The notes beneath the pieces are model-generated. The model was given only the letters and a program-made list of their open reading frames with translations. It ran no database searches and was not told where the DNA came from. Shown here piece after piece: positions 167-55,870 of a DNA stretch of 64,000 nt. The DNA is from Bacteroidales bacterium (GTDB lineage Bacteria > Bacteroidota > Bacteroidia > Bacteroidales > UBA12077), in NCBI GenBank assembly GCA_028282585.1, contig JANQHR010000046.1, positions 32,001-96,000 of the forward strand, written 5' to 3'. Positions within the stretch are counted from its first letter, which is position 1. Each line of letters starts with the position of its first letter. Made by a program: the position numbers and the translations under genes.

Positions 167-529
167 CTATTTATCGCTCTGAGACATCATCTCTTTATAA
201 TAGTCATCGCTAACCGGTTCCAGATAACCTTTACCCTCGCAAGTTGACAAATCTATTTCTGCCACACATTTTACCTTATCATAGTTTAAAGTTAAACCTC
301 CTACTAAATAGACTTTCCCCTTTGCATTTTCAAAATCTGCCTCTTCAAATTTACAATATCTTCGATCTAATTGAATTCCTAGTTCAGTTCCCGTTTCTTT
401 AAACATAACATGAACATAATCTCTGTCAATACATTCTTTCAATGCAGATGCTTTTTTTTCAGGGCGAACACATTCAATTAAATGTTCTTTTGTTAATCTT
501 TCTACTAATTCGTTTAATTGTTTTTCCAT
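167..529 (-). CDS. NRPS-cluster accessory protein of the family usually annotated 'MbtH domain protein' (lacks the canonical Trp-rich MbtH core)
   Basis: Motifs LKECIDRDYVHVMFKETGTELG and LTLNYDKVKCVAEIDL recognised from memory of this family; NRPS context. Confidence 0.6.
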   Translation of the reverse strand: MEKQLNELVERLTKEHLIECVRPEKKASALKECIDRDYVHVMFKETGTELGIQLDRRYCKFEEADFENAKGKVYLVGGLTLNYDKVKCVAEIDLSTCEGKGYLEPVSDDYYKEMMSQSDK

Positions 530-20068: not shown

Positions 20069-20085
20069 TATGTATTTATTATATT

Positions 20086-21795: not shown

Positions 21796-21796
21796 T

Positions 21797-38992: not shown

Positions 38993-41900
38993 TTATATTC
39001 TTATTTCTTCAGCTCCTTCCTCTTCAATCAATTCATTATCCGATAGATTATTTATTTCTATATAGATTGCTTGGTCTTTAATAGTAGGACGAATAAAGAT
39101 CTCATTAGCAGGAATTCTAATATTAAAGTTCTTAAAAATCTCTGAAAGCAAGATATTTAATTTTAATGAGTGTCCTCCTAACTCAAAAAAATTATCTTCC
39201 GCACCTATTTTATCTGAATCAATTTTTAAAATATTTCCCCAAACTTTTGCCAATGTTTCTTCAATTAAACCTTCAGGTTTAACATAATTTTTGTTTTCAT
39301 AATGAACAGAAATTTTAAATAATTCTCTATCAACTTTTCCATTTTGATTTAGTGGTATCTCCTCTAATTGCTTATATGTTGATGGAATCATATAATGAGG
39401 CAAGCTTTGTGATAATAACACTTTAATCTGAGGTAATGTTTCTTTTAGCTTTACATTATTTAATACCAAAAATGCTCTTAGGATCTTTTCTCCAAAGCTA
39501 TCGTTAATTGCAACAACTAAAGCTTTTTCAACATCTTGGTGTTTTAGGATACAACTTTCAATCTCGCCTAATTCAATTCTAAAACCTCTAATTTTTACTT
39601 GATTATCTTCTCGCCCTTGAAATTCAATATTGGTATCATTTAATAATCTAACACGGTCGCCTGTTTTATACAATTTTTCATTTTTTACAAATGGATTTTC
39701 AATGAAGCTATCGTTTGTTAATTCAACTTTATTTATGTAACCTATACCAACGCCTTCGCCTCCTATATATAAATCACCAATGGTGCCAAATGGAACCAAA
39801 TTAAGTTTTTCATCTAAGATATAAATACTTGTGTTGCCAATTGGTCTTCCGATAGGTAAGCTTGAATAATCTTTATTAATTTTTTTAACCAACATTTCAA
39901 TCGAAGTAACTGTTGTTTCAGTTGGGCCATATTCATTATAAAAATCATATTCCTTATTAAATTTCTCAGCTAATCCAACTCTACATACATCACCACCTGC
40001 AATAACTCTGTTAAAGTAATATTTTGATTCATTAAGTCCTTCTAAGAAAGAAGGAACAGCATGCAAATGAGTTATATTTTTTCTTAATAAGAACCTGGTA
40101 AATTCATCTTTATTCAAAATAGATTCTTTACTAACTAAATTAAGATTTGCACCACTAAAGAATGCCAACCATATTTGTTCAACCGAAGCATCAAAACACA
40201 CTGATGAAAACTGACAAATTTTCTCAGTACTATTTATTTTGAACTCATCTTTTTGGCTTTGTATTAAATTAACAACATTTCTATTATTTATCAGCACTCC
40301 TTTTGGTACACCGGAACTGCCTGAAGTGTATATGGTATATACTATATCTTCAGTACTACTTGATATATTTATATTCTCATTATCATAATCTTCCAGATTA
40401 ATCTCATCAACTACAATAACTTTTCTTTGAGCCACACCATTAGGAATACCATCTGTTTTTATGGCTAAACCTTCTATTTTTAGTAATGATTCAGTGTTAG
40501 GTAATATCCCATTATTAGCTATGATCTCTTTTACTATCTCATAAAAAGTAACTTCCCCCTCACCCATACATACCATATCTATATTGGTATCATTTAATAA
40601 ATCATCATAATTACTTGTTGCATATGGACCACCTGCTATAATTGGAGCTTCATATCCCCATAAGCGAATCAATGAAATCATTTTATGAAAGAAATCCTTA
40701 TAAAAACTTAAAGTTCTAGTACCAATAACATTAGGTTCAAACTCTTTAATTATTCGTTTTAATTCTAAATTACTATCAAAATCAACTCGAGATTTTATAA
40801 TCTTGCATTCAACTTGTTTTCCTAGCTTGTTTTTAAGGTATGTTGAAATATACATTAATCCTAAAGGAGGCTCTACAACGTCATATAATATATCGCTATC
40901 GTTAGAATAAAACTGGGACAAATCAATGAGTAAAATTTTAAGCGCATCATTATTAGCTGGTTCTTCAGGCACAAAGATTTTCTTTATTTTTTCATTTAAA
41001 TTATTTACATAAGAATAATCTTCATTTATAAAATTATAATCTTCCAGCTCTTCTATATTGATATTCACAAATTCCAGAAATTCTTGTAATGTATCTATTT
41101 TTACAGGTAAGTAACTTCGGTATTTTTGTAATAACTCATCTTCCGTAAGAACTTTCATTTGATATGGAAGAACTTTAAGAAGACGTTCCTTTAGCAAGAA
41201 ATAATTATTTAAAAACTCTGTTTGATATATTAGTGTAAATTCATCTTCAAAAGGCAAAGTTTCAGGTAATTCGTGATAAGCTAAATTTATTGATCTATTG
41301 ATTACATCTTTAGATATCCCATTTTTTAATGCGATCTTTTCCATATCGGTATTCGGGTATATTTTTAATATGTGAACATATGGAAAGTGTAACCATTTAA
41401 TACTTTTAATAAAATTTAAAGTGTCTAACGCTTCTGCTGTTGTTTCGCCAGGAAATCCATGCATAGTAAAAAGTTCAAGAATAACTTCAGGATACTTTGA
41501 ACTAATATATTCTACATTCTCTTTAAATCGTTCAACATTTAAATTTTTTCCAATAAGTTTTTGTAATCTTTTCGATGTAGTTTCTAGAGCAAGTGCAAAA
41601 CTAACTGTACCTGCCGCTACCATTAAATCAATATATTCTTTGGTTAGAATATCTCCTCTTAACCCATTTGGAAAATACAGTTGTAGCTTTAAATTGTTAT
41701 CGACAATTAATTGGAAAAATCTTTTACTATTCTTTATATCTAAATTGAATATATCATCAACAATTACAAATCTTCGTACCCCGATTTCATAATAAAGCAT
41801 TAATTCATTAAAAATATGCTCTGCTGATCTTGTAATATGACCTTTTGGCCATATTTTATGACAATATGCACATTTGTATGGACAACCTCTTGAACATTGT

Positions 41901-44900
41901 AATACTATACTATTTTTAACCATTGCTTGTCCAATATGTTGATTATACTTTTCATAATCAACTAAAGATCTATTTGGAATCGGATGATTATCCAAATCTT
42001 CAATTTGCTTTCTTACAGAACTTTTACAAATTTCCACAGGAGCATAATTATCTCCTTTTAATAAAGTAAATGATTTATCTTCTAAAGATTTATTGTCTGT
42101 TAATAAAATTGATGTCTGTGTATCATTTAGCACATTTCTAATTCTTTGGATTGGATACTCTGGTTCGATTGGTAAATATGCTGCTCCAGACTTTAAAACT
42201 CCTAAAATACTTATGATCTGATTTAACGATCTATCTTGCATTACTCCTACAAAATGATTTTTTCGTATCCCTTTTTCATACAAATATCTTGATAATCGAT
42301 TCGCACTATCATTTAGCTGCTTATATGTTATATTCTGATCATTTAAGGTAATGGCTGTTCTATTCTGATTCTTAACTACTGTTTCTTCAAATATATTTAT
42401 TAGACTTTTGTCATCACTGAATTTTCTATTTGTATTATTAATCTTATACAGTAATTCTTTCTTATCAGCCTCATCTAAGATATCTATTTCACTAATTAAG
42501 CCATCCGGATAAATACATATTTGCTCTATTATACGTTTGTAATATTTTACAATTCTTTCAATTGTTTGGGGTGCAAATAAATTTGTATTATATTCCAATA
42601 TTACCAGAATATCACTTCCTTTATCAATTGCATTCCACACCATGTCAAATTTTATTTCACCTTTTTCATGATCTATTAGATCAGCCTTAGGTAAAAACTC
42701 TGCCGAAACATATTCAGCAATAGTCCAAGCAAACATGATATCAAAAACAGGATTTCTTCCTGCATTTCTTTCTACCGAAAGTTCTTCAATTAAATTTTCG
42801 AACTGGTAATCCTGATTCACAAAAGCTGATATAGTAGATGATTTAATTTCTGATAAATACTCTTTTATAGTCTTATTTTTATCCGGATAACTTCTTATCG
42901 CTAGTGTATTAACAAAATTACCTACAATGTTTTCTAAATCTACATGTCTTCTGCCAGCAACGGGAGTACCTACTATAATATCATTTTGATTACTTAATTT
43001 GGATAACAATATTTTTAGCGCAGCTAGCAACAACATATACAATGTCATATCCTGTTGCACAGCTATTTTTCTAACACCATTGGTATTTGCTTCACCTAAA
43101 AGAAATTTAACGGAAGCACCATCAAATGTTTGTATTAAAGGTCTTTTATAATCTGTTGGTAATTGCAAAACAGGAAGTTCTCCTGAAAGAACATTTAACC
43201 AATAGCTCTCCTGCAATTTAGCCTTTTTAATTTGCTTATCGCTATTTTGCCAATCTGAGTAATCTTTATACTGCAATTTTAATTCGGGTAACTCTATTCC
43301 AGAGTATAAATTGATGAACTCCGACTCTAATATTTCTTGTGATATTCCATCACAAATTATATGATGCATATCTAAAAGTACCAGGTTTTCGTTATTTTCA
43401 GATTTTACAACAACTCCTCTTATTAACGGTGGTGAATTTAACTTAAATGGTTTTATAAAATCCTTCTTTATTTCATCAATATTTACCCTATTAAGATCCT
43501 TACAATCAATATATTGAACATTAAAATCAACATTTTCATAAATCTTTTGCACCGGTTCTTCATTCAATAATTCAAACCCAGTGCGCAGTACTTCATGTCT
43601 TTTAATAATTTTTTTAAATATTGATTCAATCCTCTGAATTTTAAAGTCACTATTCATTCTAAACTCCTGTGTCATATTGTATGTAATACTTTCAGGATTC
43701 ATATTATGAATGATAAATAACCTTTTTTGGGCAGATGACAGGGTGTAAAATTCTTTTTTATTTGTTCTATTTATGGAGTAATAATCTTCTTTCTTAGCTC
43801 TGGTTATCAACTCCACCTGATTCTTAATTTTTTGATTTTCAAAAATATCACGAAGCGAGATACTTACACCAAATTTCTTTTGAATATTTGCTATTAAAAC
43901 TGTAGCACTCAAGGAATGCCCTCCAAGTTCGAAGAAGGATTTTCTACTGCTAATTTCTTTCTGAGATATACCTAAAACTTCAGCCCATATATTGGCAAGT
44001 AACCTTTCTTTATAACTTAGTGCTTCATTTTGCTTTTCTTCAATAATTTTTGGTTCAGGTAAACGATTTCTATCAATTTTACCACTTGTCGTTATTGGTA
44101 TTTTATTAATTCCCACAAAGTAATCCGGAATCATGTATTTGGGAAGACTTAACATTAGTTCTTCCTTGATATCATTTAAATTTGTTCTATCAAATATACC
44201 TTCTGCCTTGTGCGTAATCCATACGGCAGTATCATAATACTCTCCGATATTTTTATCTATATTAATCTTTAATGGTGTATGTCCACCTTTAATTATATAT
44301 ATGTCTGAAGATGAAAATGTCTCTCCGGTCCATTTTTCCCAATCTTCAACAGTTGCTTTAATATATTGCGAATTTTCACAAAACCTAACAACTTCTCCAC
44401 CCATTTTTTTATGTACTCTAAACCATGGATCAAATATATCACCTTTGTCATTTAATTTTTTGTAATAATTTTTCAGGTCTAGTAAAGGGAATTTAGACTT
44501 CAAAGCTGGTCTTACAGGAATTAAAACTCTTTCATAATTAAAAGTTTTAGCAATATTTTGCATACATTTAATTATCTCATAACTTAATCCTACATTTCTG
44601 TATTTTTCACTCACAACTCCAACAAGAGTGAACAAAGTATTCGCATTGTTATTTGGTTCCAATCCCATTTCCAAAGCCCTACTCCAACTGGAAGGTAAAT
44701 TGTTTTTTGTTTTATCCCAGTAAATCGGGATTGTATTTCCTGCAGCAACTAATTCTCCATTACTGCTTAAAATACCAAACTGAAATGAACTATATTCTTT
44801 ATATAATCTTTTCCAGTATTTTTTTAAGTATATATCTTTCTTTAAAAAAATCGGCCATGTCGAAGCGTGTAATTGTTCAATGGAATCTTCCAGAGAAGGG

Positions 44901-47812
44901 CATTGCTCAACCGTGCTTATATAATACTTATTGTCCTTTAATGTGAATTCTTTTCCAATCTTTTGAACGTAGGTAATTAATTGCTCTATATTGTTAATTT
45001 CTCTTTTTACTACTAAACATTTTTTTACATTTTGAAATTTATTGATAGCTAATTCTATCTCCTTAATCTCAATTCTTTGCCCCCTAATTTTAACCTGGTC
45101 ATCTATACGACCTGCAAATTCAATATTTCCGTCCGGAAGCCATCTGGCTATATCTCCGGTTTTATATACTATTTTCGTATTATCAAGTATATTTACAAAT
45201 TTTGCGTTAGTTAACTCCGGATCATTTAAATATCCATCTGAAATCCCATCTCCAGTGATACATAGTTCTCCATATACTCCAATTGGCACAATCTGATCGT
45301 CCTTTAAAATATAGATTTGCGTATTTTCAATTGGCTTTCCAATTGGCACTTTGGTCTGATCTTTCTTAATCTGTTCTAATAAAAATTTAGTTGAAGTAAT
45401 TGTAGTTTCCGTAGGTCCATACAAATTATATAATTTATATTCATTAAAATATTGTGTAGCTAATGCAATATCACATTCTTCTCCACCTACTATTAAGCGT
45501 TTAATCTCCTTACAACCATGTACATCGACACTTTTCAAATATGCAGGTACTGTATCTAAATGAGAAATAGAGTTTTTTATAATATATTTTTTAAACCTAA
45601 GAGGATCAAACAAAATTTCCTTTTCAACTAATACTAAACTAAGGCCATTTAAAATGGGTAATAGAATTTGCTCAATCGAAGCATCAAAGCTTGAATTAGA
45701 AAACTGAAGAATACGTTCATCTTTTGAAAAACTAAACTCATTGGTTTGACTTAATATTAGGTTTATGATACTATTTTGTTTAACTATTACTCCTTTGGGA
45801 TTACCTGTGGTACCTGATGTATAAATAATGTAAGCATATTTATTTACTAATGGTGCTACATTTTTATAATTACTTGACTTTCCGGCAAGTTCTTTATTTA
45901 TATGGATACTTTCTATCTCTAAATCATTAGTAAAATGATACCGATCAGCAATTAATAGAGACATTCCGGTATCTTTGATAATATATGAAACTCTCTTTTT
46001 AGGAAGCTCTGGATCAATTGGTACATAAACAAATCCAGATTTAAAAATTGCTAACATTGATATTACTAATTCGGCTGATCTTTCGACCTTTACACCAATT
46101 ACACCTTCTTTAACTTTAGTTTTACTATTAATAATATAAGATAAATTAGCCACTAAAGAATGTAATTTTTTAAATGTAATATATTCGTCATTTAATATCA
46201 GGGCAATACGATCCGGATACTTTTTACATTCATTTTCAAACAACTGATATATACCTTCCTTTTCATATTCGGTTTGTTTAGAACAATTAAACTCATATAA
46301 TATCTTGCGCTTTTCTTTTTTTCCTAACAAATTTATTTGTGATATAAATTTGTTCAAATCCATTAATTGATTTATTATGTTTTTAAAATAACTAATATAT
46401 CGTTCTATTGTCTTAGGGGTAAAAAGATTAGTTTTATATTCGATATTAATTAGTATTTGTTCGTTTAAATCAAATACAGTAAATGTAATGTCAAATGGAG
46501 CAGTAGTTTGCTCGTGTATATATTTATCTTCACTAACAATTTTGGATACTTCTATGTCATAATCCTTTTGATTAAGAACATTCAGCATAACATTAAACAA
46601 GGGATTTCTAGTTGTTTCTCTATGATCTGTAACTTTCTCAACCAGATGTTCAAATTGGTATTCTTTATTATCGAAAGCATTAATTACGTTTATTTTTACT
46701 TGTTCAATAAATTCATTTAATGAAAATTCATTCGGTATTTTATTCCTTATAGCCAGCGTGTTAATAAAATTCCCTACAACCGTTTCAAAGTCTACATGAT
46801 CCCTTGTAATAACCGGAGTTCCGATTACAATATCATTTTGACCGGACAGTTTTGCAAGTAAGATATTAAAAATGGATAACATACTCATAAATAGAGTAAT
46901 TTCCTTTTCTTGAATTATATTCTTAATAATTCCGGTTTCATTTTGATCTAAACTAAAGAAAACTTTTGCTCCGCCTTGAGAGTCTTGAAGATTGTATGAA
47001 AAGTCATATGGTAATATTAATTCTTCAGGCGCTACATTAAACCTTTTTAACCAATAATTTTCTTGCTTTTTTATTTCTTGTTGGTACTCCGCAGTACTCT
47101 GCCATTTCGCGAAATCCTTATATTGAATTTTTAAAGGTTTTAATGAATTTTTATTTAAAAGGTTAAAAAAATCATTTATTAAGATATTGTTTGTTACTCC
47201 ATCGCTTATAATATGATGCATATCTATAAAAAGAATAGAGTCCAAATCTTCGATTCTAAATATGGTAGCTCTTAAAAGTGGTGCTTTTGATAAATTAAAT
47301 GTTACTGTATTTTCCTTTTTAATATTTTCTACTTCATCAAATGTTATATATTTTTCTTTGACTTCAAACTCTAATTCATTATGAATTAGTTGCACAATTT
47401 CGTTATTGATTATTCTAAAACTTGTTTTTAAGCTTTCGTGATGTGATATAAGATCTTTAAAAATATCTTCTATATCAGATGTCTTTAATTTACCCGAAAC
47501 ATTAAAAGTTGCAGGCATATTCTGTGATGTACTCTCTGAATTAATTTGTTGAATTAAAAACATTCGCTTCTGAGCTGAAGAGACAGGATAGTATTCTCTT
47601 TTTTCAACGTTCTTTATATTAAAATCATTAGCTTTTTCCTTAACATCGTTTAAAAACAAAATGATTTCTCTTTTATGTTTTTTAAGTTCTAAGAGTAAAT
47701 CATCGGTTAATATATTATCACCTTTAATAAATAAATCCAGTTCACCTGATGGAGAAACTGACATATTTATTCCATGTTTTTTAAGTTTTGAAATTATATC
47801 TAGTACACTCAT
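38993..47812 (-). CDS. Bimodular NRPS: docking-C-A(GNAT inserted)-T-C-A(radical SAM/B12 inserted)-T
   Basis: Two HHxxxDG, two YTSG A3 motifs, two GGHSL; codes DAEDIGLITK and DAEHIGEVTK; GNAT-like insert after A8 of module 1; RGCPYKCAYC insert between A2 and A3 of module 2. Confidence 0.94.
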   Translation of the reverse strand: MSVLDIISKLKKHGINMSVSPSGELDLFIKGDNILTDDLLLELKKHKREIILFLNDVKEKANDFNIKNVEKREYYPVSSAQKRMFLIQQINSESTSQNMPATFNVSGKLKTSDIEDIFKDLISHHESLKTSFRIINNEIVQLIHNELEFEVKEKYITFDEVENIKKENTVTFNLSKAPLLRATIFRIEDLDSILFIDMHHIISDGVTNNILINDFFNLLNKNSLKPLKIQYKDFAKWQSTAEYQQEIKKQENYWLKRFNVAPEELILPYDFSYNLQDSQGGAKVFFSLDQNETGIIKNIIQEKEITLFMSMLSIFNILLAKLSGQNDIVIGTPVITRDHVDFETVVGNFINTLAIRNKIPNEFSLNEFIEQVKINVINAFDNKEYQFEHLVEKVTDHRETTRNPLFNVMLNVLNQKDYDIEVSKIVSEDKYIHEQTTAPFDITFTVFDLNEQILINIEYKTNLFTPKTIERYISYFKNIINQLMDLNKFISQINLLGKKEKRKILYEFNCSKQTEYEKEGIYQLFENECKKYPDRIALILNDEYITFKKLHSLVANLSYIINSKTKVKEGVIGVKVERSAELVISMLAIFKSGFVYVPIDPELPKKRVSYIIKDTGMSLLIADRYHFTNDLEIESIHINKELAGKSSNYKNVAPLVNKYAYIIYTSGTTGNPKGVIVKQNSIINLILSQTNEFSFSKDERILQFSNSSFDASIEQILLPILNGLSLVLVEKEILFDPLRFKKYIIKNSISHLDTVPAYLKSVDVHGCKEIKRLIVGGEECDIALATQYFNEYKLYNLYGPTETTITSTKFLLEQIKKDQTKVPIGKPIENTQIYILKDDQIVPIGVYGELCITGDGISDGYLNDPELTNAKFVNILDNTKIVYKTGDIARWLPDGNIEFAGRIDDQVKIRGQRIEIKEIELAINKFQNVKKCLVVKREINNIEQLITYVQKIGKEFTLKDNKYYISTVEQCPSLEDSIEQLHASTWPIFLKKDIYLKKYWKRLYKEYSSFQFGILSSNGELVAAGNTIPIYWDKTKNNLPSSWSRALEMGLEPNNNANTLFTLVGVVSEKYRNVGLSYEIIKCMQNIAKTFNYERVLIPVRPALKSKFPLLDLKNYYKKLNDKGDIFDPWFRVHKKMGGEVVRFCENSQYIKATVEDWEKWTGETFSSSDIYIIKGGHTPLKINIDKNIGEYYDTAVWITHKAEGIFDRTNLNDIKEELMLSLPKYMIPDYFVGINKIPITTSGKIDRNRLPEPKIIEEKQNEALSYKERLLANIWAEVLGISQKEISSRKSFFELGGHSLSATVLIANIQKKFGVSISLRDIFENQKIKNQVELITRAKKEDYYSINRTNKKEFYTLSSAQKRLFIIHNMNPESITYNMTQEFRMNSDFKIQRIESIFKKIIKRHEVLRTGFELLNEEPVQKIYENVDFNVQYIDCKDLNRVNIDEIKKDFIKPFKLNSPPLIRGVVVKSENNENLVLLDMHHIICDGISQEILESEFINLYSGIELPELKLQYKDYSDWQNSDKQIKKAKLQESYWLNVLSGELPVLQLPTDYKRPLIQTFDGASVKFLLGEANTNGVRKIAVQQDMTLYMLLLAALKILLSKLSNQNDIIVGTPVAGRRHVDLENIVGNFVNTLAIRSYPDKNKTIKEYLSEIKSSTISAFVNQDYQFENLIEELSVERNAGRNPVFDIMFAWTIAEYVSAEFLPKADLIDHEKGEIKFDMVWNAIDKGSDILVILEYNTNLFAPQTIERIVKYYKRIIEQICIYPDGLISEIDILDEADKKELLYKINNTNRKFSDDKSLINIFEETVVKNQNRTAITLNDQNITYKQLNDSANRLSRYLYEKGIRKNHFVGVMQDRSLNQIISILGVLKSGAAYLPIEPEYPIQRIRNVLNDTQTSILLTDNKSLEDKSFTLLKGDNYAPVEICKSSVRKQIEDLDNHPIPNRSLVDYEKYNQHIGQAMVKNSIVLQCSRGCPYKCAYCHKIWPKGHITRSAEHIFNELMLYYEIGVRRFVIVDDIFNLDIKNSKRFFQLIVDNNLKLQLYFPNGLRGDILTKEYIDLMVAAGTVSFALALETTSKRLQKLIGKNLNVERFKENVEYISSKYPEVILELFTMHGFPGETTAEALDTLNFIKSIKWLHFPYVHILKIYPNTDMEKIALKNGISKDVINRSINLAYHELPETLPFEDEFTLIYQTEFLNNYFLLKERLLKVLPYQMKVLTEDELLQKYRSYLPVKIDTLQEFLEFVNINIEELEDYNFINEDYSYVNNLNEKIKKIFVPEEPANNDALKILLIDLSQFYSNDSDILYDVVEPPLGLMYISTYLKNKLGKQVECKIIKSRVDFDSNLELKRIIKEFEPNVIGTRTLSFYKDFFHKMISLIRLWGYEAPIIAGGPYATSNYDDLLNDTNIDMVCMGEGEVTFYEIVKEIIANNGILPNTESLLKIEGLAIKTDGIPNGVAQRKVIVVDEINLEDYDNENINISSSTEDIVYTIYTSGSSGVPKGVLINNRNVVNLIQSQKDEFKINSTEKICQFSSVCFDASVEQIWLAFFSGANLNLVSKESILNKDEFTRFLLRKNITHLHAVPSFLEGLNESKYYFNRVIAGGDVCRVGLAEKFNKEYDFYNEYGPTETTVTSIEMLVKKINKDYSSLPIGRPIGNTSIYILDEKLNLVPFGTIGDLYIGGEGVGIGYINKVELTNDSFIENPFVKNEKLYKTGDRVRLLNDTNIEFQGREDNQVKIRGFRIELGEIESCILKHQDVEKALVVAINDSFGEKILRAFLVLNNVKLKETLPQIKVLLSQSLPHYMIPSTYKQLEEIPLNQNGKVDRELFKISVHYENKNYVKPEGLIEETLAKVWGNILKIDSDKIGAEDNFFELGGHSLKLNILLSEIFKNFNIRIPANEIFIRPTIKDQAIYIEINNLSDNELIEEEGAEEIRI
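40455..42020 (-). other. Radical SAM plus B12-binding didomain embedded in an adenylation domain (approximate bounds)
   Basis: In frame between SGAAYLPIE (A2) and IYTSGSSGVPKG (A3); CPYKCAYC, VDDIFN, HGFPGET, then EPPLGLMY, AGGPYAT, MGEGE. Confidence 0.88.
44200..44940 (-). other. GNAT-like N-acyltransferase embedded in an adenylation domain (approximate bounds)
   Basis: In frame between A8 (RIDDQVKIRGQRIE) and A9 (LPKYMIP); VSEKYRNVGLS acyl-CoA motif, IPVRPALK, FDPWFRVHKKMGG, DWEKWTG. Confidence 0.75.
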
Positions 47813-47927
47813 AACAAACTATTTCAACCTTATATTTATTGAATATACCACAACCATTTTAGGCTAGATAAAAACTAAGTAAAATATAAATTATTAATAA
47901 TTAAAGAATTAAAAATGAAGTGTTGTT

Positions 47928-49196
47928 TCAACTAATAATATTTTTATTTATAAGCCATCTTTTAATAAAACGTTGGTATTCTTTAGTAAGTTTTGGAAAC
48001 ATTCCTTCAATTCTATTATTGCTGGTATATGTTATATTATGATCAGCATTTTTGAAAATTTTTACTTCAATGTTTTTAAGATTAAATGACCGTATTTTCT
48101 TAATATTTTCTAATGGATTTACCAACGTGTCATTGCTTCCCCAAAATACTAAAGCCGGAATATTCATATTTTTCCAAAAAGGATCAAACTTTGTTATTCT
48201 ACCTTTCCATGCCCAACTATCAAATTCATTTTCTGGAATTTTAATATTTTCAAACAAAGCTGTTTCATTCATGAAACCATATATTTTCGCATTATTTTTA
48301 ATATATGTTTCTACTTCATTATGCTTTGCTCCATTAAAAATTAATTTTTCTACATTTTTATGTGACTGTATAACAACATCACAATCTTTTTCCGAGAATC
48401 CCTTTTCTTTTATCCTAATGCTATCTTGATATATTGCAGATTCAGTTAAACTTATAATTTCCGGCGATTTAGCAATCATAAATGATGGAATTTCAGATCT
48501 ACTACTTATCATAGGTAATATAGAAGCTCCTTGACTAAATCCCCAAATTCCTATACGTTCTTTATCCACATCATTCCTGGATCTTAAATATTTCAAACAA
48601 GCAATTGCATCATCGATTAAATCATTAAATGTTATTGATTTATAATTGCCTGTAGATTTACCATTTCCTCTTTTATCAAAAGTTAAAACAATAAATCCCA
48701 GTTTTTTATATATTTTAGCCTCGCTAATATATTGATTTGCCAAATTTGTATGAGACCCATGTAACATTAATATAGCTGGGCATTTTAGGATTTTCTCAGG
48801 TTTTATAATTTGACTAAACAGTTTATCATTCTTATTGGAAATAAAAATCTCTTCAAAACTGCACTCCTGAAGATAATTTTCATTTACATTTTTATTTACT
48901 TCAAATTCAATTTCTAAATCGGAAGATGAATTATCTGATGATACCTTTCCTAAAATATTATTTTCATTTACTATTCCTTTAAAAACCAATTTAGTATCAC
49001 CTGGTTGAATATTAAAATGAATTATACCATCTTTTAATTCCAAATATTCTATAACCAAACAATTAATTAAGATCTCGTCACAATTAAAATAGCTCTTATT
49101 ATTATCAATTAATATAGAAATATTAACAGAATCAATCTTACTAACCATTTTCCCTTTCCATAACCCATTTATTTGATTTCTTTCTTCAAAGGCCAT
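47928..49196 (-). CDS. Alpha/beta-fold serine hydrolase (peptidase S9/S15-like)
   Basis: LHGS, FDKRGNGKS, GxSxG (WGFSQGA), Asp in WGSNDTLV, His in NADH. Confidence 0.85.
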   Translation of the reverse strand: MAFEERNQINGLWKGKMVSKIDSVNISILIDNNKSYFNCDEILINCLVIEYLELKDGIIHFNIQPGDTKLVFKGIVNENNILGKVSSDNSSSDLEIEFEVNKNVNENYLQECSFEEIFISNKNDKLFSQIIKPEKILKCPAILMLHGSHTNLANQYISEAKIYKKLGFIVLTFDKRGNGKSTGNYKSITFNDLIDDAIACLKYLRSRNDVDKERIGIWGFSQGASILPMISSRSEIPSFMIAKSPEIISLTESAIYQDSIRIKEKGFSEKDCDVVIQSHKNVEKLIFNGAKHNEVETYIKNNAKIYGFMNETALFENIKIPENEFDSWAWKGRITKFDPFWKNMNIPALVFWGSNDTLVNPLENIKKIRSFNLKNIEVKIFKNADHNITYTSNNRIEGMFPKLTKEYQRFIKRWLINKNIIS

Positions 49197-49236
49197 TCTA
49201 ATCTTTTTTTCTAATTCTTAAAGAATTATCCGGATT

Positions 49237-50895
49237 TTAAATACTTAATTCCAATTCAATTTCCAGGTTCTTACATTCATCTATATAACCGTTTTTAAAA
49301 TCCATAATATTAGGGACTGCATTTTTTTGTAAGTCTGACCATCGTTTATCTGCTTCTACTACCTCCTGCAAATAGTAAGGATTTGGAATATTAAGCTTTT
49401 TACAATGATTTACAAATCTTGCTACTCGATTATAAATGTCTTCTCTGGAAGGAGTTGTGTCCAGTTGATAAGTTTTAAATAATAGATATTTATTCATCTC
49501 ATCCGGATACACCGAATATTTTTTAAACTGCATATCCCATGCATTAGAAAAAGACTGCCCTGAATTAAAATATCTAAAAGGATTACATTCAACTTCATAT
49601 AAGTAATCTCGTAATTCTTCGATTAAATCTAATGTCTGAATAAAATCACTTTCTTGCTCGCCCGGATGTCCGACAATCCAGTAAGTGGAAGTTTTAACAC
49701 CCGCTTTAGCCAGGTTTATTATTGTTGATTTAACTTGATCCATACTAACTTTTTTATCCATCAGATCTAAAACTTTTTGAGACCCGCTTTCAATTCCAAG
49801 CCTTGCCCTATAAAAGCCCCCCTTTCTCCATTGAAATACTTTATTATAATTACATGAGTATTTATCAACTCGTAGGTATGCATCAAAATAAAATACTCCC
49901 GTATGTTTTATAAGGCTTTCTGTTAAATCATTAAGTACAGGATTAATTAATGAATCGGCCATTAAAAATAATTGTGTATTATATTCTTTCTGAATATGTT
50001 CAAAATCATTAATAATTACATCAATAGACCTTTTTCGGAATTTTCCCCAATTAATTGTTTCTGAGCAAAAACTACACTGAAATGGACAACTTCTTGAAGT
50101 ATAAACTGGCATATAAGGATAAAATCCCAAATCGTTCACACTATAATTCTGAGCAAGTGGCAAATTAATATTAACTCTCTCATTATCTATGTCACTTGAC
50201 ATATATACTCTTTGATCTTTTTTTAAATTACCATTTAAAATCTTTGTAAAAAGAATTTCACCTTCACCAATAACAATTTTATCAATGTAATCTGTCTCGT
50301 TAACGAATTTTTTAAAATTGGGAGTATCAACAATTAGTTCTTGCGAGAAAACAGGTCCTCCCATAACTGTTTTAATCTCAGGAAATCTAGATTTAACCAA
50401 TTTAAACGCAAACATTGATGCCGGAAGCGTTCCTCTAAAAACCGAAAGACCAAATATATCTACCTTTTTATCTATTATACTGATTATAAAATCTTCAAGT
50501 TTAATATAAAAGTTTTTTACAATTGAATTTAAATCAGTTATTAATTTATCACTAATTTTAAAATAAAAATTACTTTCAATTAATAAACCAACCATATTAT
50601 TAAACGCATTAAAATTTAAACCTTGCCGGTTAAGCTCAAGCATTAAATGATTATTTAGTACATCATTTCCAACGTTATAAACATTACCTAATTTCTGCTT
50701 GGGAATCCATTTTTTAATAGTCTTTATATAATCCTTATAGATATTATCAAATTCTCCTTGAATGTTACAATCAAATATTTCGACCTTATGTCCATCTTTT
50801 TCTAAATAGTCTTGTAAACATTTCAAACCAAAAGGAGGAACCAATGGAGCCCAGAATGGCATTAATCCAAGTGTTATATTCTTTTTCGTACTCAT
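49237..50895 (-). CDS. B12-binding domain radical SAM protein
   Basis: PFWAPLVPPFGLKCLQDY, MGGP, IGEGE, SRSCPFQCSFCSE, RLGIESG, VGHPGE. Confidence 0.88.
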   Translation of the reverse strand: MSTKKNITLGLMPFWAPLVPPFGLKCLQDYLEKDGHKVEIFDCNIQGEFDNIYKDYIKTIKKWIPKQKLGNVYNVGNDVLNNHLMLELNRQGLNFNAFNNMVGLLIESNFYFKISDKLITDLNSIVKNFYIKLEDFIISIIDKKVDIFGLSVFRGTLPASMFAFKLVKSRFPEIKTVMGGPVFSQELIVDTPNFKKFVNETDYIDKIVIGEGEILFTKILNGNLKKDQRVYMSSDIDNERVNINLPLAQNYSVNDLGFYPYMPVYTSRSCPFQCSFCSETINWGKFRKRSIDVIINDFEHIQKEYNTQLFLMADSLINPVLNDLTESLIKHTGVFYFDAYLRVDKYSCNYNKVFQWRKGGFYRARLGIESGSQKVLDLMDKKVSMDQVKSTIINLAKAGVKTSTYWIVGHPGEQESDFIQTLDLIEELRDYLYEVECNPFRYFNSGQSFSNAWDMQFKKYSVYPDEMNKYLLFKTYQLDTTPSREDIYNRVARFVNHCKKLNIPNPYYLQEVVEADKRWSDLQKNAVPNIMDFKNGYIDECKNLEIELELSI

Positions 50896-50923
50896 TACTA
50901 GTTATAATTAAATAGAGAAACGA

Positions 50924-53900
50924 TTAGATTGTAATTTTCTTACCAGCTGACATTTCTTCCTCTACCAAACCTACATTCTTAATCATATCGATTAGTACCG
51001 CAATTTTTCGAATGGTAGTAGCAACGAATATATCAGAAATAAGTATTTTAATATCAAAGGTGTTATTTATTTGATTTATAAGAATATTTGCTTTTACGGA
51101 ATGTCCGCCAAGTTCAAAGAAATCAGCATCAATACTAATCTTATTATCAGAAATACCTAATATATTGGACCATATTGTAACCAGTTGAGCTTCTAACTCT
51201 GTTGTAGGTGGTATATATTCAATTGTATCTTCAATATTTATCTCTGGCAATGCAGTTTTATCAACCTTTCCATTTTTGTTTAAAGAAATATTTTCAATTT
51301 CTTTGAAATACTGAGGAATCATGTACTCAGGAATAACATCTTTTAATTCCTCCTTTATATCATTTGAATCTATTTCATAATCTGTAACATAGTAAGCACA
51401 TAAATATTGCATGTTTAAATTATCCGTTTTTACAATTACAATAGCATCTGATATACGATCCAGTGATTTTAAAACAGACTCGATTTCTCCTAATTCAATA
51501 CGATAACCTCTAATTTTAACCTGAAAATCATTTCTACCGATAAATTCTAAACTGCCATTTGGTAACATTCGAGCTAAATCTCCTGTTTTATATAGTTTTT
51601 CATTATCAACAAAAGGATTTTTAATATAACATGTATTAGTTAATATCAGATTATTCAAATAACCTTCCGTTATACATTCTCCACCTATATATAATTCACC
51701 AACCATACCTTTTGGTAAAGGATTTAAATCCTCATTTAAAATGTAAACTTTAGTATTTGGAAATGGATTACCAATTGGAACATTGGTGTTCTTATCTGTT
51801 TCAGTATTATATTTATGGATAATACACCCTACAGTAGCCTCAGTTGGGCCATACTCATTAAATATTTCTATCCTATTGGCAAATAAATCAATTATATTAT
51901 GTGCCAATTGTGTTTCTAGTTGTTCTCCTCCTATTACTATTGTTTTTACTCTACTCTTATTGATTATATCACTCAAACCTTGATTGTCTCTAATAAGCTT
52001 TAAATGTGAAGGCGTTAATTTAATTACATCCACTTTATTATCCGATAGTACTTTCTCAATATCCGCTTCTTCGTAAATTACTAATTTACTACCATTTATC
52101 AAAGGAGTAAAAATTGATGTGATGGTTAAATCAAAAGTCAATGATGTATATAACGGGAAATTAGATTCCTTTTGTTTACAATAAAACTTATTAGCACTCC
52201 AAATGTAATTAACCAAGTTCTTATGATTAACCAAAACTCCTTTGGGATTTCCTGTAGTTCCTGATGTATAAATGCAATAAGCGATATTATACGTAAATCC
52301 CTCGGGTAAGTTTTCTTTATAGCTTAAAAGCTTTTCGTTATTTAAATTTTCATAAAAATCATTTATCTCAAAAATCTTTATTTTACTATAACTATCCTTA
52401 TTAAAAGCAATTCCAGGAATTTCAATTAACTGCTTTTCTGTAGGGAAACTTCCCTTATTTTCAAGGATTGTTGAAACTACCTGTGCAAAGGTCTTCTCAC
52501 CTTCTCCAAAAACAACCAAATCAACGTTTAAGTTTTTAAGTACTTCATCATAATTACTAGTTGGATAAGGACCTCCTGCGATTAATATCCCTTTATAATA
52601 TTTCCTAATATTTTCAACTGTTTCGTTAAAATATAGTTTATAATAAACTAAGGACCTACAACCTACAATATCCGGTTTGAATTCTTCAATTATTTCTTGC
52701 AATTCAGAATGACTATCAAAATCAACCCGTGATTTTATAATTTTACAATTAACTTTATTATTAAATTCTTTATTAATGTATGTTGCCAGATACATTAAGC
52801 CCAATGGAGGCTCAATTACATCATAAATATCCTGAGAATCTTTTGAAAAATATAATGATAAATCTATTAAAAGTATTTTAAGTCTATCATTGGATTTAAC
52901 ATCATGTGAAAAATGAGCTTTAATTTTTGAGTTTAAGTCAATTGTTTTATTACTTTCAGAATTATTCTCATCTAATTCTATTTCATCTTTAAGTCCTATA
53001 AAATTCAATAATTCTTCAAATGTGCTAATATTAACAGGTAGATAACTGTTATATTTTTGAACTAATTCATCTTTCGTTAATACCTTTAATTGATATGGCA
53101 ATACTTTTTTAAGTCTCTCTTTAGAAAGAAAGTATTCATTAAGAAATATTGATTGATACTTTTTTGTAAATGATTCATTAAACGGCAAAGTTAAAGGTAA
53201 TGCATGATGAGGAAGATGTTCTGACATTGAAATAGATTTCTCAGAAATACCATTTTCCAATGCCATTTTATGCATATCTGTATTTTTATAAATCTTTAAA
53301 ATATTGATATAAGGAAAATGTATCCATTTAATACTTTGAATAAAATTTAATGTCATTAGAGCTTCCTCTTCTGTTTCAGTTGGGAATCCATGCATTGTCA
53401 TTAGTTCAATAATAACCTGAGGATAGGTTTTACTAATATATTCAAGATTATCTTTTAATTTTTGTAAATCAATATTTTTATTTATAAGCTTTTGTAATCG
53501 TGGAGACGCGGTTTCAAGAGCTAAAGCAAAATTTACAACACCTGCTTTTACCATCAAATCAATGTACTCTTTAGTTAAGATATCTCCTCTTAATCCGTTA
53601 GGGAAAAAAAAGTTTACTTTTAATCCATTTTCAATAATCAGTTCAAAAAATCGCTTACTGTTTTGAACATTTAAATTAAAAATATCATCAACAAATGAGA
53701 ATCTTTTAATTCCCATTTTATAGTAAAGATTAACTTCTTCGAATATATTATCAGCAGATCTAAATACATGCTTTTTAGACCAAACTTTATGACAATATGC
53801 ACATTTAAAAGGACAACCTCTGGTTGCTTGAATTGAAATGCTATTTTTCACCATAGCTTGTCCTATATATTGAGTATAATAGTTATAATCAACTAAAGAA

Positions 53901-55870
53901 CGGTTAGGCATAGGTAAAGAATCAAATTCTTTAATTGGATCTCTATTTATTGTTTTTACAATATTATCGGTATCAAGAATATTCTGAATTTTTCTCTCTC
54001 GAATTATTTTCTTCGAAGCTATAATCAATGATAATTGAGAATCAGTTACAATAGTACGAAGTCTTTTTTCAGGTATATCGGTATCCAAGGGTAAATAAAC
54101 ACAGTTTAGTTTAAGTATTCCCAGTATTGCAACTATTGTATCGATTGATCGTTCCATCATAACACCGACCATCTCACCTTCGTTGATATTTTTATATTTA
54201 AGAAATGCAGCAAATTTATCTGACACTTCTCCAAGTTCTTTATATGTCAGAGTTTCTTTATGCATTTGCAATGCTATATCGGAAGGAGTTTCTTCTACCT
54301 GATTATTAAATAAATCAATAATGGTCTTATCGTAGGGAAAATACGATTTTGTTCGGTTAAGGTCAAAAACTATCCGTTCTTTTTCTTCAGAAGTAAGCAG
54401 ATCAACCTGTCCTAAAGTCAACTCATCATCTCGAACAATCTGATTAGAAAGATTTTTAAAGAAACTCCCAAATCTATCAATAGTATCTGAATTAAATAAA
54501 TCAGTTGAATATTCAAAGTTTAATAAGATTTGGTTACCGTAATCATACACATTTAGTCTTAAATCAAACTTAGAGTGTCCCTTTATATGGTTGTTTATTG
54601 TATTATGATCAGATTTTTTAATTTCAGTTTCTTTGGTATTTTGTAAAGCAAATACAACATCAAATAAGGGATTTCTATTGGTATTTTTTGTTATGGTTAA
54701 TTTATCTAACAACTCCTCCAGAGGATACTCTTGGTTTTCAAAGGCTTCCACTGTTAAAGTCTTGATTTCTTTAAGGTAATCTTTAATCTTCTTATTTCCA
54801 TCCGGGAAACTTCTTAAAGCCATTGTATTAACAAACATTCCAACAACTCCCGCAAAATCAACATGAGGTCTGGCTTCATTTGTAGTTCCAATAATAATAT
54901 CATTTTGTCCGGATATCTTTGACAATAGTATCTTAAATGTTGCTAACATTATCATGTATAATGTTAATCCATTTCTTGATATATATGCCTTTACATTTTG
55001 AGTTTCACCTATCGATAGTGCATAGGAAACCGTAGCTCCTTCGAAATTTATATTCGCGCTGCGAGAATAATCAGTTGGCAGGTCTAATGAAGGTAATTCG
55101 CCAGCTAATTTTTGTAACCAATATTTCTCACTTTGGAGCTTCTTATCATGTTGCTGTTTACTTTTTCGCCATTCAGAAAAGTCAGTATATTGCAAATTAC
55201 GTGAAGCCAATTTTTTCCCTTCATACAATTTTATAAAATCTTCAGTTAGTATTGAGTGTGATATACCATCGCAAATGATGTGGTGCATATCAATAAACAA
55301 AAGTGATCTGTTCGTATTTGTTTTTATCAAACTACTTCTAACTAATGGAGCTTTATCCATTTCAAAAGGTTTTAATAAAGTATGCTGAATATTATTAATT
55401 TCTTCTTCTTGAATATATAACTCGTTCAAAGTAAAATTGATATTTTCATTAATTATTTGAACTATGGAATCACCCACCATTCTGTAAGATGACCTTAAAA
55501 TATCGTGATGATTAATCAGAATTGAAAATAATTCTTCGATTTTATCCTTGTCAAGGCCATCAGGTAATGGAATGAAAAAGGGCATATTATATGCAACATT
55601 ATTAGATAACTGTTGCAATAAATACATTCTGGTTTGCGGAGAAGTTAATGAATAATATTCCTTTTTTTCACTTTTTTTTATATTAGCAAATGAATTTTGC
55701 CTATTATACTTAACTAGAAATTCAATTAATTCTTTCTTATTATCTCTAATTAATTCTATTAACTCCTTCGTTATTTTTTCCTTATCACCTTTCAGTTTTA
55801 TTTGATTTTCACTTAATCCAATTTTAATTCCTTTCTGATTGAGGTGATCTACCAGTTCGAAGATATTCAT
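50924..55870 (-). CDS. NRPS: docking-C-A(Asn/Asp-like, radical SAM/B12 inserted)-T
   Basis: HHIICDG; code DLTKVGEVGK; RGCPFKCAYC insert between A2 and A3; GGHSV. Confidence 0.94.
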   Translation of the reverse strand: MNIFELVDHLNQKGIKIGLSENQIKLKGDKEKITKELIELIRDNKKELIEFLVKYNRQNSFANIKKSEKKEYYSLTSPQTRMYLLQQLSNNVAYNMPFFIPLPDGLDKDKIEELFSILINHHDILRSSYRMVGDSIVQIINENINFTLNELYIQEEEINNIQHTLLKPFEMDKAPLVRSSLIKTNTNRSLLFIDMHHIICDGISHSILTEDFIKLYEGKKLASRNLQYTDFSEWRKSKQQHDKKLQSEKYWLQKLAGELPSLDLPTDYSRSANINFEGATVSYALSIGETQNVKAYISRNGLTLYMIMLATFKILLSKISGQNDIIIGTTNEARPHVDFAGVVGMFVNTMALRSFPDGNKKIKDYLKEIKTLTVEAFENQEYPLEELLDKLTITKNTNRNPLFDVVFALQNTKETEIKKSDHNTINNHIKGHSKFDLRLNVYDYGNQILLNFEYSTDLFNSDTIDRFGSFFKNLSNQIVRDDELTLGQVDLLTSEEKERIVFDLNRTKSYFPYDKTIIDLFNNQVEETPSDIALQMHKETLTYKELGEVSDKFAAFLKYKNINEGEMVGVMMERSIDTIVAILGILKLNCVYLPLDTDIPEKRLRTIVTDSQLSLIIASKKIIRERKIQNILDTDNIVKTINRDPIKEFDSLPMPNRSLVDYNYYTQYIGQAMVKNSISIQATRGCPFKCAYCHKVWSKKHVFRSADNIFEEVNLYYKMGIKRFSFVDDIFNLNVQNSKRFFELIIENGLKVNFFFPNGLRGDILTKEYIDLMVKAGVVNFALALETASPRLQKLINKNIDLQKLKDNLEYISKTYPQVIIELMTMHGFPTETEEEALMTLNFIQSIKWIHFPYINILKIYKNTDMHKMALENGISEKSISMSEHLPHHALPLTLPFNESFTKKYQSIFLNEYFLSKERLKKVLPYQLKVLTKDELVQKYNSYLPVNISTFEELLNFIGLKDEIELDENNSESNKTIDLNSKIKAHFSHDVKSNDRLKILLIDLSLYFSKDSQDIYDVIEPPLGLMYLATYINKEFNNKVNCKIIKSRVDFDSHSELQEIIEEFKPDIVGCRSLVYYKLYFNETVENIRKYYKGILIAGGPYPTSNYDEVLKNLNVDLVVFGEGEKTFAQVVSTILENKGSFPTEKQLIEIPGIAFNKDSYSKIKIFEINDFYENLNNEKLLSYKENLPEGFTYNIAYCIYTSGTTGNPKGVLVNHKNLVNYIWSANKFYCKQKESNFPLYTSLTFDLTITSIFTPLINGSKLVIYEEADIEKVLSDNKVDVIKLTPSHLKLIRDNQGLSDIINKSRVKTIVIGGEQLETQLAHNIIDLFANRIEIFNEYGPTEATVGCIIHKYNTETDKNTNVPIGNPFPNTKVYILNEDLNPLPKGMVGELYIGGECITEGYLNNLILTNTCYIKNPFVDNEKLYKTGDLARMLPNGSLEFIGRNDFQVKIRGYRIELGEIESVLKSLDRISDAIVIVKTDNLNMQYLCAYYVTDYEIDSNDIKEELKDVIPEYMIPQYFKEIENISLNKNGKVDKTALPEINIEDTIEYIPPTTELEAQLVTIWSNILGISDNKISIDADFFELGGHSVKANILINQINNTFDIKILISDIFVATTIRKIAVLIDMIKNVGLVEEEMSAGKKITI
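52400..53950 (-). other. Radical SAM plus B12-binding didomain embedded in an adenylation domain (approximate bounds)
   Basis: In frame between NCVYLPLD (A2) and IYTSGTTGNPKG (A3); CPFKCAYC, VDDIFN, HGFPTET, then EPPLGLMY, AGGPYPT, FGEGE, IPGIAF. Confidence 0.88.

Follow-up and report, generated by a model that had tools for sequence, protein, structure and literature searches.

Evidence for a circularly permuted cobalamin radical SAM enzyme family embedded in nonribosomal peptide synthetases

Embedded radical SAM units in a large synthetase cluster

We analyzed a 64,000-nucleotide stretch of DNA, hereafter the window, from a Bacteroidales bacterium (contig JANQHR010000046.1, positions 32,001 to 96,000; C124:32001-96000 in our numbering, in a genome of 4.9 Mb). 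Its G+C content is ~28% and all long open reading frames (ORFs) lie on the minus strand. Pfam annotation and the ORF list identify the window as a single very large nonribosomal peptide synthetase (NRPS) cluster that, besides the synthetases, encodes four stand-alone B12/radical S-adenosylmethionine (SAM) enzymes, more radical SAM genes and transporters. Two of the synthetases, P0002 and P0001, carry an adenylation (A) domain interrupted by a unit that combines a radical SAM barrel with a cobalamin (B12)-binding domain. These units and the protein family to which they belong are the subject of this report. Their defining features, together with the condensation (C) and carrier (T) domains of the host proteins, are as follows.

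50924-55870, minus strand: NRPS gene P0002, 1648 amino acids (aa), with docking domain, C domain, A domain interrupted by a radical SAM/B12 unit, and T domain (ORF list, translation, Pfam)
54083-54097, minus strand: YLPLD upstream of the insert, P0002 residues 592-596, which we take to be A-domain core motif A2 (read from the translation)
52403-53950, minus strand: embedded permuted unit 1, P0002 residues 641-1156, in the order linker, barrel, helical region, connector, Rossmann B12 domain, I.G.A strand (Pfam, BLAST, profiles, model, motifs)
53339-53830, minus strand: Radical_SAM (PF04055) barrel of unit 1, residues 681-844 (Pfam, 82.5 bits, cut-off 29.5)
53792-53815, minus strand: CPFKCAYC, the CxxxCxxC [4Fe-4S] cluster motif, P0002 residues 686-693 (motif search)
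52478-52813, minus strand: B12-binding (PF02310) Rossmann domain of unit 1, residues 1020-1131, with PPLGL.Y, GGPY and GEGE (Pfam, 46.5 bits, cut-off 32.1)
52238-52270, minus strand: A3 motif YTSGTTGNPKG downstream of the insert, P0002 residues 1201-1211 (motif search)
38993-47812, minus strand: NRPS gene P0001, 2939 aa, two modules (ORF list, translation, Pfam)
within 38993-47812, minus strand: P0001 module 1, with C domain, A domain bearing an unassigned insert, and T domain (Pfam)
within 38993-47812, minus strand: P0001 module 2, with C domain, A domain interrupted by a radical SAM/B12 unit, and T domain (Pfam)
42164-42187, minus strand: A2 motif GAAYLPIE of module 2, P0001 residues 1876-1883 (motif search)
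40463-42004, minus strand: embedded permuted unit 2, P0001 residues 1937-2450 (Pfam, BLAST, profiles, motifs)
41408-41896, minus strand: Radical_SAM (PF04055) barrel of unit 2, residues 1973-2135 (Pfam, 64.8 bits, cut-off 29.5)
41861-41884, minus strand: CPYKCAYC cluster motif of unit 2, starting at P0001 residue 1977 (motif search)
40535-40873, minus strand: B12-binding (PF02310) domain of unit 2, residues 2314-2426 (Pfam, 39.5 bits, cut-off 32.1)
40298-40330, minus strand: A3 motif YTSGSSGVPKG of module 2, P0001 residues 2495-2505 (motif search)

The two units are 58% identical over 528 aa. A preliminary description of this DNA had proposed that they are circular permutants, starting at the linker that normally joins the two domains and ending with the motif that normally precedes it. 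A Pfam scan placed PF04055 ahead of PF02310 in both P0002 and P0001, all matches exceeding the gathering cut-offs, and a motif search recovered every motif named in that description from both copies in the order claimed: the linker I.[DE].D..P.PNR (starting at residue 646 of P0002 and 1937 of P0001), CxxxCxxC (686 and 1977), KILLID (998 and 2292), PPLGL.Y, GGPY (1099 and 2394), GEGE (1122 and 2417) and I.G.A (1151 and 2446). The AMP-binding profile of P0002 stops after A2 and resumes at residue 1194 with profile position 162 (162-384), just ahead of A3. A third embedded copy lies on the same contig ~17 kb past the window end, in a 1777-aa ORF (C124:113429-115066), so the NRPS cluster is larger than the window; three copies are present in the genome as a whole.

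Swapped domain order relative to class-B enzymes

The stand-alone enzymes of the cluster, all assigned by Pfam and by a family profile, provided internal comparators with the ordinary domain order of class-B radical SAM enzymes (the 'class 1' fold).

49237-50895, minus strand: P0003, B12 domain at residues 129-191, barrel at 265-425
20086-21813, minus strand: ordinary-order B12 radical SAM enzyme
14728-16389, minus strand: ordinary-order B12 radical SAM enzyme, scoring 587 bits against the PhpK family model (cut-off 600)
8143-9969, minus strand: ordinary-order B12 radical SAM enzyme

As previously described, B12-binding precedes Radical_SAM in all four, with the B12-binding match below the Pfam cut-off in two (27.3 and 23.3 bits). 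BLAST between inserts and stand-alone enzymes returned pieces in swapped order, with insert residues 50-334 matching stand-alone residues 267-543. Full-length profiles of ordinary enzymes behaved in the same manner. The KedN5 profile split at one point, its positions 17-157 falling on insert residues 389-529 (P0005 excerpt) and positions 159-388 on insert residues 5-234 (P0006 excerpt), while BchE positions 156-360 fell on insert residues 2-209. Conversely, a profile built from 52 sequences of the permuted family (profile A1) matched the N-terminus of each of the four window stand-alones with its C-terminal part and their middle with its N-terminal part.

We extended this comparison to metagenomic control ORFs, taken from a profile-based locus search with very general patterns that covered at least 80 loci at 22-37% identity, all of ordinary order and with no family members among them. 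Profile A1 matched 115 of these ORFs, 101 of them with both pieces, and the B12 piece came first in 101/101. In 21 of the 101, the profile end (position ≥525; the core ends near 533) abutted the profile start (position ≤8) within three residues. The profile end is thus contiguous with the profile start in ordinary-order proteins, from which it follows that the new termini of the permuted units are former sequence neighbors. Ordinary-order relatives also form tandem arrays of paralogs within one metagenome contig; locus L007 contains at least six matching ORFs, and L006 and L040 contain three each.

The class-B linker l..P.P.R.LVD is retained in the inserts, where it aligns to residues 171-184 of AprD4, and the post-barrel region is kept as well. 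The description of the linker motif as the usual interdomain linker stood in part: in the alignments it is seen in AprD4 and in the ordinary-order metagenome relatives but is not obvious in the window stand-alones. Between the post-barrel helices and the Rossmann domain (approximately residues 326-363 of the P0005 excerpt) lies a stretch that is variable in alignment A1 and of lower confidence in the structural model, as would be expected of a new connector joining the old termini. We rejected an assembly chimera as the origin of the swapped order, given 1053 representatives at E≤1e-30 and three copies in the window genome, and likewise a chance order of motifs, given swapped profile matches in 101/101 ORFs and a large family. 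The proposed circular permutation was thereby borne out by the Pfam order, by the split full-length profiles and by the family-profile matches in ordinary-order enzymes. On these sequence comparisons, there is very little doubt that the embedded units represent a genuine circular permutation of a class-B radical SAM enzyme.

Predicted structures of the unit and its host domain

An AlphaFold2 model of the insert, computed from alignment A1, reached a mean predicted local distance difference test score (pLDDT) of 88.3 and a predicted template modeling score (pTM) of 0.87, the latter indicating that the predicted domain packing is confident. The model comprises barrel strands at residues 44-224, helices at 232-325 and a Rossmann region at 364-505 with alternating helices and five strands, at 364, 407, 435, 462 and 485. 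At its ends are a short N-terminal strand (4-6) and a C-terminal strand (521-524) that contains I.G.A. In class-1 enzymes, a beta-hairpin is described to follow the five-stranded Rossmann fold (available part of PMC13331322). From the model, we infer that the cut may lie at the turn of this hairpin, leaving one strand at each chain end.

Foldseek, a sequential aligner, aligned either the barrel alone or, poorly, both domains of proteins with a barrel-then-B12 layout. Matches through the barrel included AprD4, MgmA, MiaB/RimO, TsrM, CysS and OxsB, with a root-mean-square deviation (rmsd) for TsrM of 2.5-3.0 A over ~226 columns. On the cobalamin side, residues 65-138 of the TokK chain, its cobalamin domain, matched family-profile positions 437-509 (E 2e-7).

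For the host domain, we modeled P0002 residues 490-1550 using alignment A2, which adds 35 embedded homologs (36 rows). This interrupted A domain reached pLDDT 86.8 and pTM 0.66, the A-domain parts and the insert being confident and the two junctions weaker (67-78). The intact 481-residue A domain 4d4i superposed across the insert with a template modeling (TM) score of 0.90 (target-normalized, 1024 columns); GrsA-PheA (1amu) gave 0.72. Because the flanking A-domain parts superpose on a single intact A domain, the ends of the ~540-aa insert must meet. The earlier suggestion that the new termini lie close together agrees with this model and with their origin as sequence neighbors in the profile comparison. 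The insert is thus predicted to take the place of a short loop in the host A domain, which would remain folded around it.

Family size and insertion sites

A search of 1.84 billion cluster representatives placed 1053 in the permuted family at E≤1e-30. Nearly all of the best 150 of these were NRPS proteins (725-7548 aa) with the whole unit present, in some cases twice. A length-limited search yielded many proteins of 533-601 aa that contain only PF04055 and PF02310 and are 47-58% identical to the insert over 91-98% of its length, among them a 546-aa protein with an NCBI name from [Clostridium] polysaccharolyticum. Source names of the free-standing relatives include Aminicenantes, Acidobacteriota, Deltaproteobacteria, Bacteroidales and Firmicutes. 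In total, 276 profile matches in 272 proteins comprised 147 units embedded in NRPSs, 90 free ones (flanks <70 aa), 32 at protein edges and seven partial ones. After removal of two excerpts of the window, 88 free-standing proteins of ~535-600 aa with the barrel-then-B12 order remained, and such proteins, which the preliminary description had proposed to search for, thus exist in number. The swap in domain order is a trait of a large family of free and embedded sequences and not peculiar to the window. Within the window phylum the unit was found in two of 401 sampled genomes, the window genome included (E≤1e-60), and a single-protein search of genome contigs returned one related locus, 98% identical, in a Bacteroidales metagenome-assembled genome. 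All 52 rows of alignment A1 and all 36 embedded rows of alignment A2 share the three cluster cysteines, GGP and GEGE without exception, and many other positions are likewise invariant, which points to a unit under selection as an enzyme.

Most embedded copies, 134/147, are located between A2 and A3, flanked by A2 and/or by A3 or A5. Two (P0128 and P0252) lie between A8 and A9, about ten follow A10 (or A9) ahead of the carrier domain, and one was unclassified. By eye, some of the post-A10 copies (P0205, P0232) are surrounded by what is left of a decayed second A domain; others (P0201, P0132) are not. Naturally split forms were also encountered. Proteins of ~718-727 aa consist of an A1-A2 fragment (~130 aa), the permuted unit and a ~32-aa tail (P0012, P0025, P0027, P0007, P0029 and P0021, from several sources and on contigs of up to 78 kb) and may each represent part of an A domain that is split in nature. 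In others (P0156, P0263, P0150), the unit comes first and the remainder of the A domain follows. With three insertion sites in evidence, it is somewhat probable that the adjacent termini are what makes the permuted unit insertable.

Phylogeny of free and embedded forms

A FastTree phylogeny of 267 unit sequences contained at least 13 changes between the free and embedded states, compared with a mean of 70 and a minimum of 62 when labels were shuffled (200 shuffles). As an outgroup we used 30 ordinary-order ORFs, whose two pieces were aligned separately to the profile. In the rooted FastTree phylogeny, the family formed one clade (support 0.979), the first two branches of which, one of six sequences including P0104 and one of two, were free. 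Fitch parsimony assigned the free state to the root, and the basal free branches were supported at 0.89-0.98. A quick IQ-TREE search (LG+G4; 62 ingroup and 12 outgroup rows) gave Shimodaira-Hasegawa-like approximate likelihood ratio test (SH-aLRT) values of 100 for the family, 92 for a basal free clade of six and 97 for the remainder. Since the outgroup and the first family branches are free-standing, the shortest history is one in which the enzyme was permuted first and inserted later, several times. We therefore consider it probable that the permutation is a family trait older than insertion and was made neither by nor for the insertion events in the window. The original idea that permutation allowed insertion is retained in one respect, as a pre-existing property that insertion looks to have exploited; it fails in the other, in that the permutation was not produced for insertion, being shared by 88 free relatives that branch first.

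Several points weigh against this order of events. The branch that follows the basal free clade in the IQ-TREE phylogeny is an embedded copy, that of P0002 from the window. The root depends on a long outgroup branch of 1.1-1.2 substitutions per site and divergence is greatest in the basal free clade, which long-branch attraction could therefore misplace. Sampling was uneven, with free forms coming from the length-limited search and embedded ones from the best 150 of 1053 representatives. Lastly, the free-standing state was judged from predicted proteins, and split gene calls may account for some of the isolated free tips.

Function and substrate

Ten specificity positions were read from 36 host A domains using GrsA numbering. 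The codes included DFWNIGMVHK (four times), DAFW[IL]GGTFK, DAWFLGNVVK, DAKDLGVVDK, DAQDIGVVDK and DLTKVGHIGK. The code of P0002 is DLTKVGEVGK, and that of P0001 module 2, DAEHIGEVTK, recurs in P0209. We take these codes to be Thr-, Val-, Leu-, Glu-, Gln-, Asp- and Asn-like, that of P0002 being presumably Asn/Asp-like. As the unit serves modules of diverse specificity, its chemistry is most plausibly directed at a position common to all residues. Most characterized class-B enzymes are methylases. Precedents for comparable substrates exist: CysS, TokK and ThnK are reported to methylate pantetheine-bound substrates (available part of PMC8950095), and the nonribosomal peptide discodermin is methylated at alanine and valine positions by DscE, a stand-alone enzyme (available part of PMC12858407). 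By analogy, we give about an even chance to cobalamin-dependent C-methylation of a carrier-bound residue, probably at the beta carbon.

Two observations count against this assignment. In the NCBIfam comparison, the cut-off of no curated B12 radical SAM family was reached (BchE, PhpK, KedN5, ApyD, BzaD, HpnJ/R, PoyC-like rSAM_ocin_1 and others), the best scores being 105.4 bits for the P0005 excerpt against a BchE cut-off of 481 and 99.5 bits for the P0006 excerpt against a PhpK cut-off of 600; no function can therefore be transferred from these families. In addition, among solved structures the barrel is most closely related to AprD4, the B12-like domain of which reportedly does not bind cobalamin, and for this reason cobalamin binding by the permuted unit is not assured.

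Alternative explanations

The swapped order could also have arisen without any permutation, if a barrel and an unrelated B12-type Rossmann domain had been fused independently in a layout resembling Mmp10/DUF512 proteins or methylmalonyl-CoA mutase. Radical SAM enzymes can acquire a cobalamin domain at the C-terminus, as exemplified by Mmp10 (available parts of PMC13331322 and PMC8950095), and MetH, mutases and Mmp10 were indeed among the Foldseek matches of the insert model. These matches reached only TM 0.17-0.30 with rmsd values of 15-29 A, however, and the domain is a five-stranded PF02310 fold unlike the four-stranded DUF512 type. Both halves of the unit have the same nearest relatives, ordinary class-B enzymes; linker and post-barrel region were both kept; and the direct continuity of profile end and profile start in 21/101 two-piece ORFs is difficult to reconcile with a fusion of unrelated parts, which we regard as highly improbable. 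A different scenario accepts the circular permutation but reverses the order of events, with the permutation arising inside an NRPS and the free forms descending from later excisions or gene splits. The interleaving of free and embedded forms, with at least 13 changes, would suit such a history, as would the natural split forms (the ~725-aa proteins combining an A1-A2 fragment with the cassette, and those in which the cassette is followed by the rest of the A domain) and a root position that may be a long-branch artifact. It requires one extra step, however, and is at odds with a free-standing outgroup and free first family branch or branches, supported at 0.89-0.98 in FastTree and 92-97 in IQ-TREE. 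An ordinary-order enzyme with distant termini would, moreover, be hard to fit into a loop before permutation. We consider an embedded origin doubtful.

The remaining alternative concerns chemistry. The permutation may be real and the Rossmann domain a cobalamin-free remnant, as in AprD4, in which case the unit would perform cobalamin-independent radical chemistry on the tethered residue, such as epimerization, dehydration, dehydrogenation or cross-linking. AprD4 was the best solved match by sequence (E 1.8e-9), profile (3.5e-20) and fold (5.9e-11), Pfam detected no epimerization domain in P0002, and no methylase family model reached its cut-off. The AprD4 match is limited, however, to linker and barrel (chain residues 166-396), whereas the Rossmann region of the unit is matched by the B12 domains of the cobalamin enzymes TokK and MgmA. 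PF02310 exceeds its gathering score in both copies, and the invariance of GGP, GEGE and other Rossmann positions (52/52 and 36/36) is more than a scaffold needs. We regard a cobalamin-free remnant as improbable and favor a cobalamin-dependent permuted enzyme.

Relation to known enzymes and interrupted adenylation domains

The permuted family resembles class-B/class-1 enzymes (TokK/ThnK, TsrM, CysS, OxsB and PoyC-type peptide C-methylases) in its CxxxCxxC barrel, its five-stranded PF02310 domain with GGP and GEGE, the linker ahead of the barrel and the helical region after it. It differs in the reversed domain order, in the new connector joining the old termini, in reaching no curated cut-off and in that about half of the sampled members are embedded in NRPSs. 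Class-B members are described as carrying an N-terminal B12 domain (available part of PMC8950095); in neither embedded copy is the B12 domain N-terminal to the barrel. Mmp10, which the available part of PMC13331322 presents as the sole characterized enzyme with a C-terminal cobalamin domain, represents class 2. There, as in the permuted units, the radical SAM domain precedes a C-terminal cobalamin domain, but the latter is four-stranded, common to DUF512 proteins and similar to CFeSP, not PF02310, whereas the permuted units carry the class-1 Rossmann domain. The Pfam scan gave no DUF512 match in P0001 or P0002, and Mmp10 (7qbu) matched the insert model poorly (TM 0.30, rmsd 14.9 A). The permuted family combines a class-1 domain with a class-2 position and fits neither class. 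AprD4, a radical SAM diol dehydratase (PDB 6fd2), is the best solved relative of the linker, barrel and post-barrel regions and shares the l..PlP.R.LVD linker, but is only ~20% identical to the permuted unit and has the ordinary order with its Rossmann-like domain first.

Known guests of interrupted A domains are class I SAM methyltransferases, ketoreductases and oxidases. The guest in P0002 and in module 2 of P0001, Radical_SAM plus B12-binding according to Pfam, is none of these, while the host shows the arrangement of an interrupted A domain, with a split AMP-binding match and with A2 and A3 flanking the insert. Structural matches to the host A domain included 5wmm, which we take to be the TioS A4-M-A4 protein with a class I methyltransferase inserted at a8-a9; the corresponding a2-a3 inserts are presumably those of the TioN type. 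In both systems a tailoring enzyme occupies a surface loop of an A domain that presumably keeps its function, and the loops a2-a3 and a8-a9 are the same. They differ in the guest, here a ~520-aa, two-cofactor, oxygen-sensitive radical SAM/B12 enzyme compared with a Rossmann-fold methyltransferase of ~250-400 aa, and in that the permuted unit is additionally found between A10 and T, in decayed A-domain shells and free-standing. DscE, which likewise performs cobalamin radical SAM C-methylation of a nonribosomal peptide, differs from the embedded units in being a protein of its own that modifies the free peptide at a late stage (available part of PMC12858407). The same source calls the combination of NRPS and radical SAM enzyme unusual and, in the part available, makes no mention of embedded domains. 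Searches of the open-access and bioRxiv literature turned up neither an A domain with a radical SAM guest nor a permuted class-B enzyme.

Other features of the window

Two further A domains in the window are interrupted in other ways. Module 1 of P0001 contains a second, different insert of ~270 aa between A8 and A10 (residues ~931-1200; window 44213-45022, minus strand) with no Pfam match at E≤0.01; by eye, it might be guessed to be acyltransferase-like. In the protein encoded at 16493-20098 (minus strand), a PRMT5-like/class I methyltransferase domain follows the A-domain core at residues ~730-867, a case of interruption by a conventional methyltransferase. A 2398-aa NRPS protein (56027-63223, minus strand) contains a family-4 glycosyltransferase (PF13439, PF00534, PF13692; residues ~887-1198) placed between a carrier domain and the following condensation domain.

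Short, similar C-terminal tails (..EEIRI, ..KKITI, ..LELSI) are present in the NRPS proteins P0001 and P0002 and in the stand-alone B12 radical SAM enzyme P0003, and a TubC_N-type docking domain opens six window proteins, with five matches above the Pfam cut-off and that of P0001 below it. These sequence features suggest that trans-acting radical SAM enzymes may dock on the assembly line. Two radical SAM genes lack a B12 domain (28371-29339 and 63316-63933, both minus strand): one encodes a 322-aa protein and adjoins an aminotransferase gene, and the other is truncated by the window edge, with its 3' part inside the window. At 2610-5684 (minus strand), a single ORF of 1024 aa combines a beta-lactamase/transpeptidase-like domain (PF00144, 209 bits) with the membrane and ATPase parts of an ABC transporter; a MacB/FtsX-type permease adjoins it at 5750-8122. 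A 120-aa ORF at 167-529 (minus strand) matched PF02312, the eukaryotic core-binding factor beta family, with 29.9 bits (cut-off 25), an unexpected match in a bacterium that could be due to chance or low complexity.

Proposed explanation and implications

We think it likely that the embedded unit is a complete, circularly permuted class-B cobalamin radical SAM enzyme that NRPSs have captured repeatedly. The ordinary chain runs from the Rossmann B12 domain and I.G.A strand through the linker to the radical SAM barrel and a C-terminal helical region. In the proposed permuted chain, the linker would come first, followed by barrel, helical region, a new and variable connector of ~40-60 residues, the Rossmann domain and the I.G.A strand. 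The connector would join the old C-terminus to the old N-terminus, and the new ends, being former sequence neighbors, would lie side by side. A single permutation event, most likely in a free-standing enzyme, may have produced this cassette, which NRPS genes would then have taken up repeatedly, usually in the A2-A3 loop, with the A domain staying folded around it. The cassette is expected to bind cobalamin and SAM and to act in cis on the aminoacyl or peptidyl thioester of the module's own carrier domain. Methylation of an unactivated carbon would be the most likely reaction, with the beta carbon as our best guess.

Put more broadly and only tentatively, the family could constitute a third architectural class of cobalamin radical SAM enzymes, with a class-1 cobalamin domain in the class-2 position. 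One permutation of a free enzyme at the turn after the Rossmann domain would have brought the ends into contact and created a plug-in cassette, captured several times in at least three loops or linkers and in many anaerobic lineages, for in-line radical C-methylation of tethered residues, probably at the beta carbon and with any side chain.

Reviews classify cobalamin radical SAM enzymes by the order of their domains (PMC13331322). To the main class, this family would contribute a large group of natural circular permutants and, with it, a ready test of how far the geometry of barrel and corrin depends on chain connectivity. With its adjacent termini and three tolerated sites, the unit would also offer a naturally insertable cassette for assembly-line engineering. 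If our explanation is true, this is the first radical, oxygen-sensitive, two-cofactor tailoring domain built into an adenylation domain, the permuted cassette is the nonribosomal counterpart of polytheonamide-type peptide methylation, and C-alkylated residues are to be predicted in the products of uncultured anaerobes.

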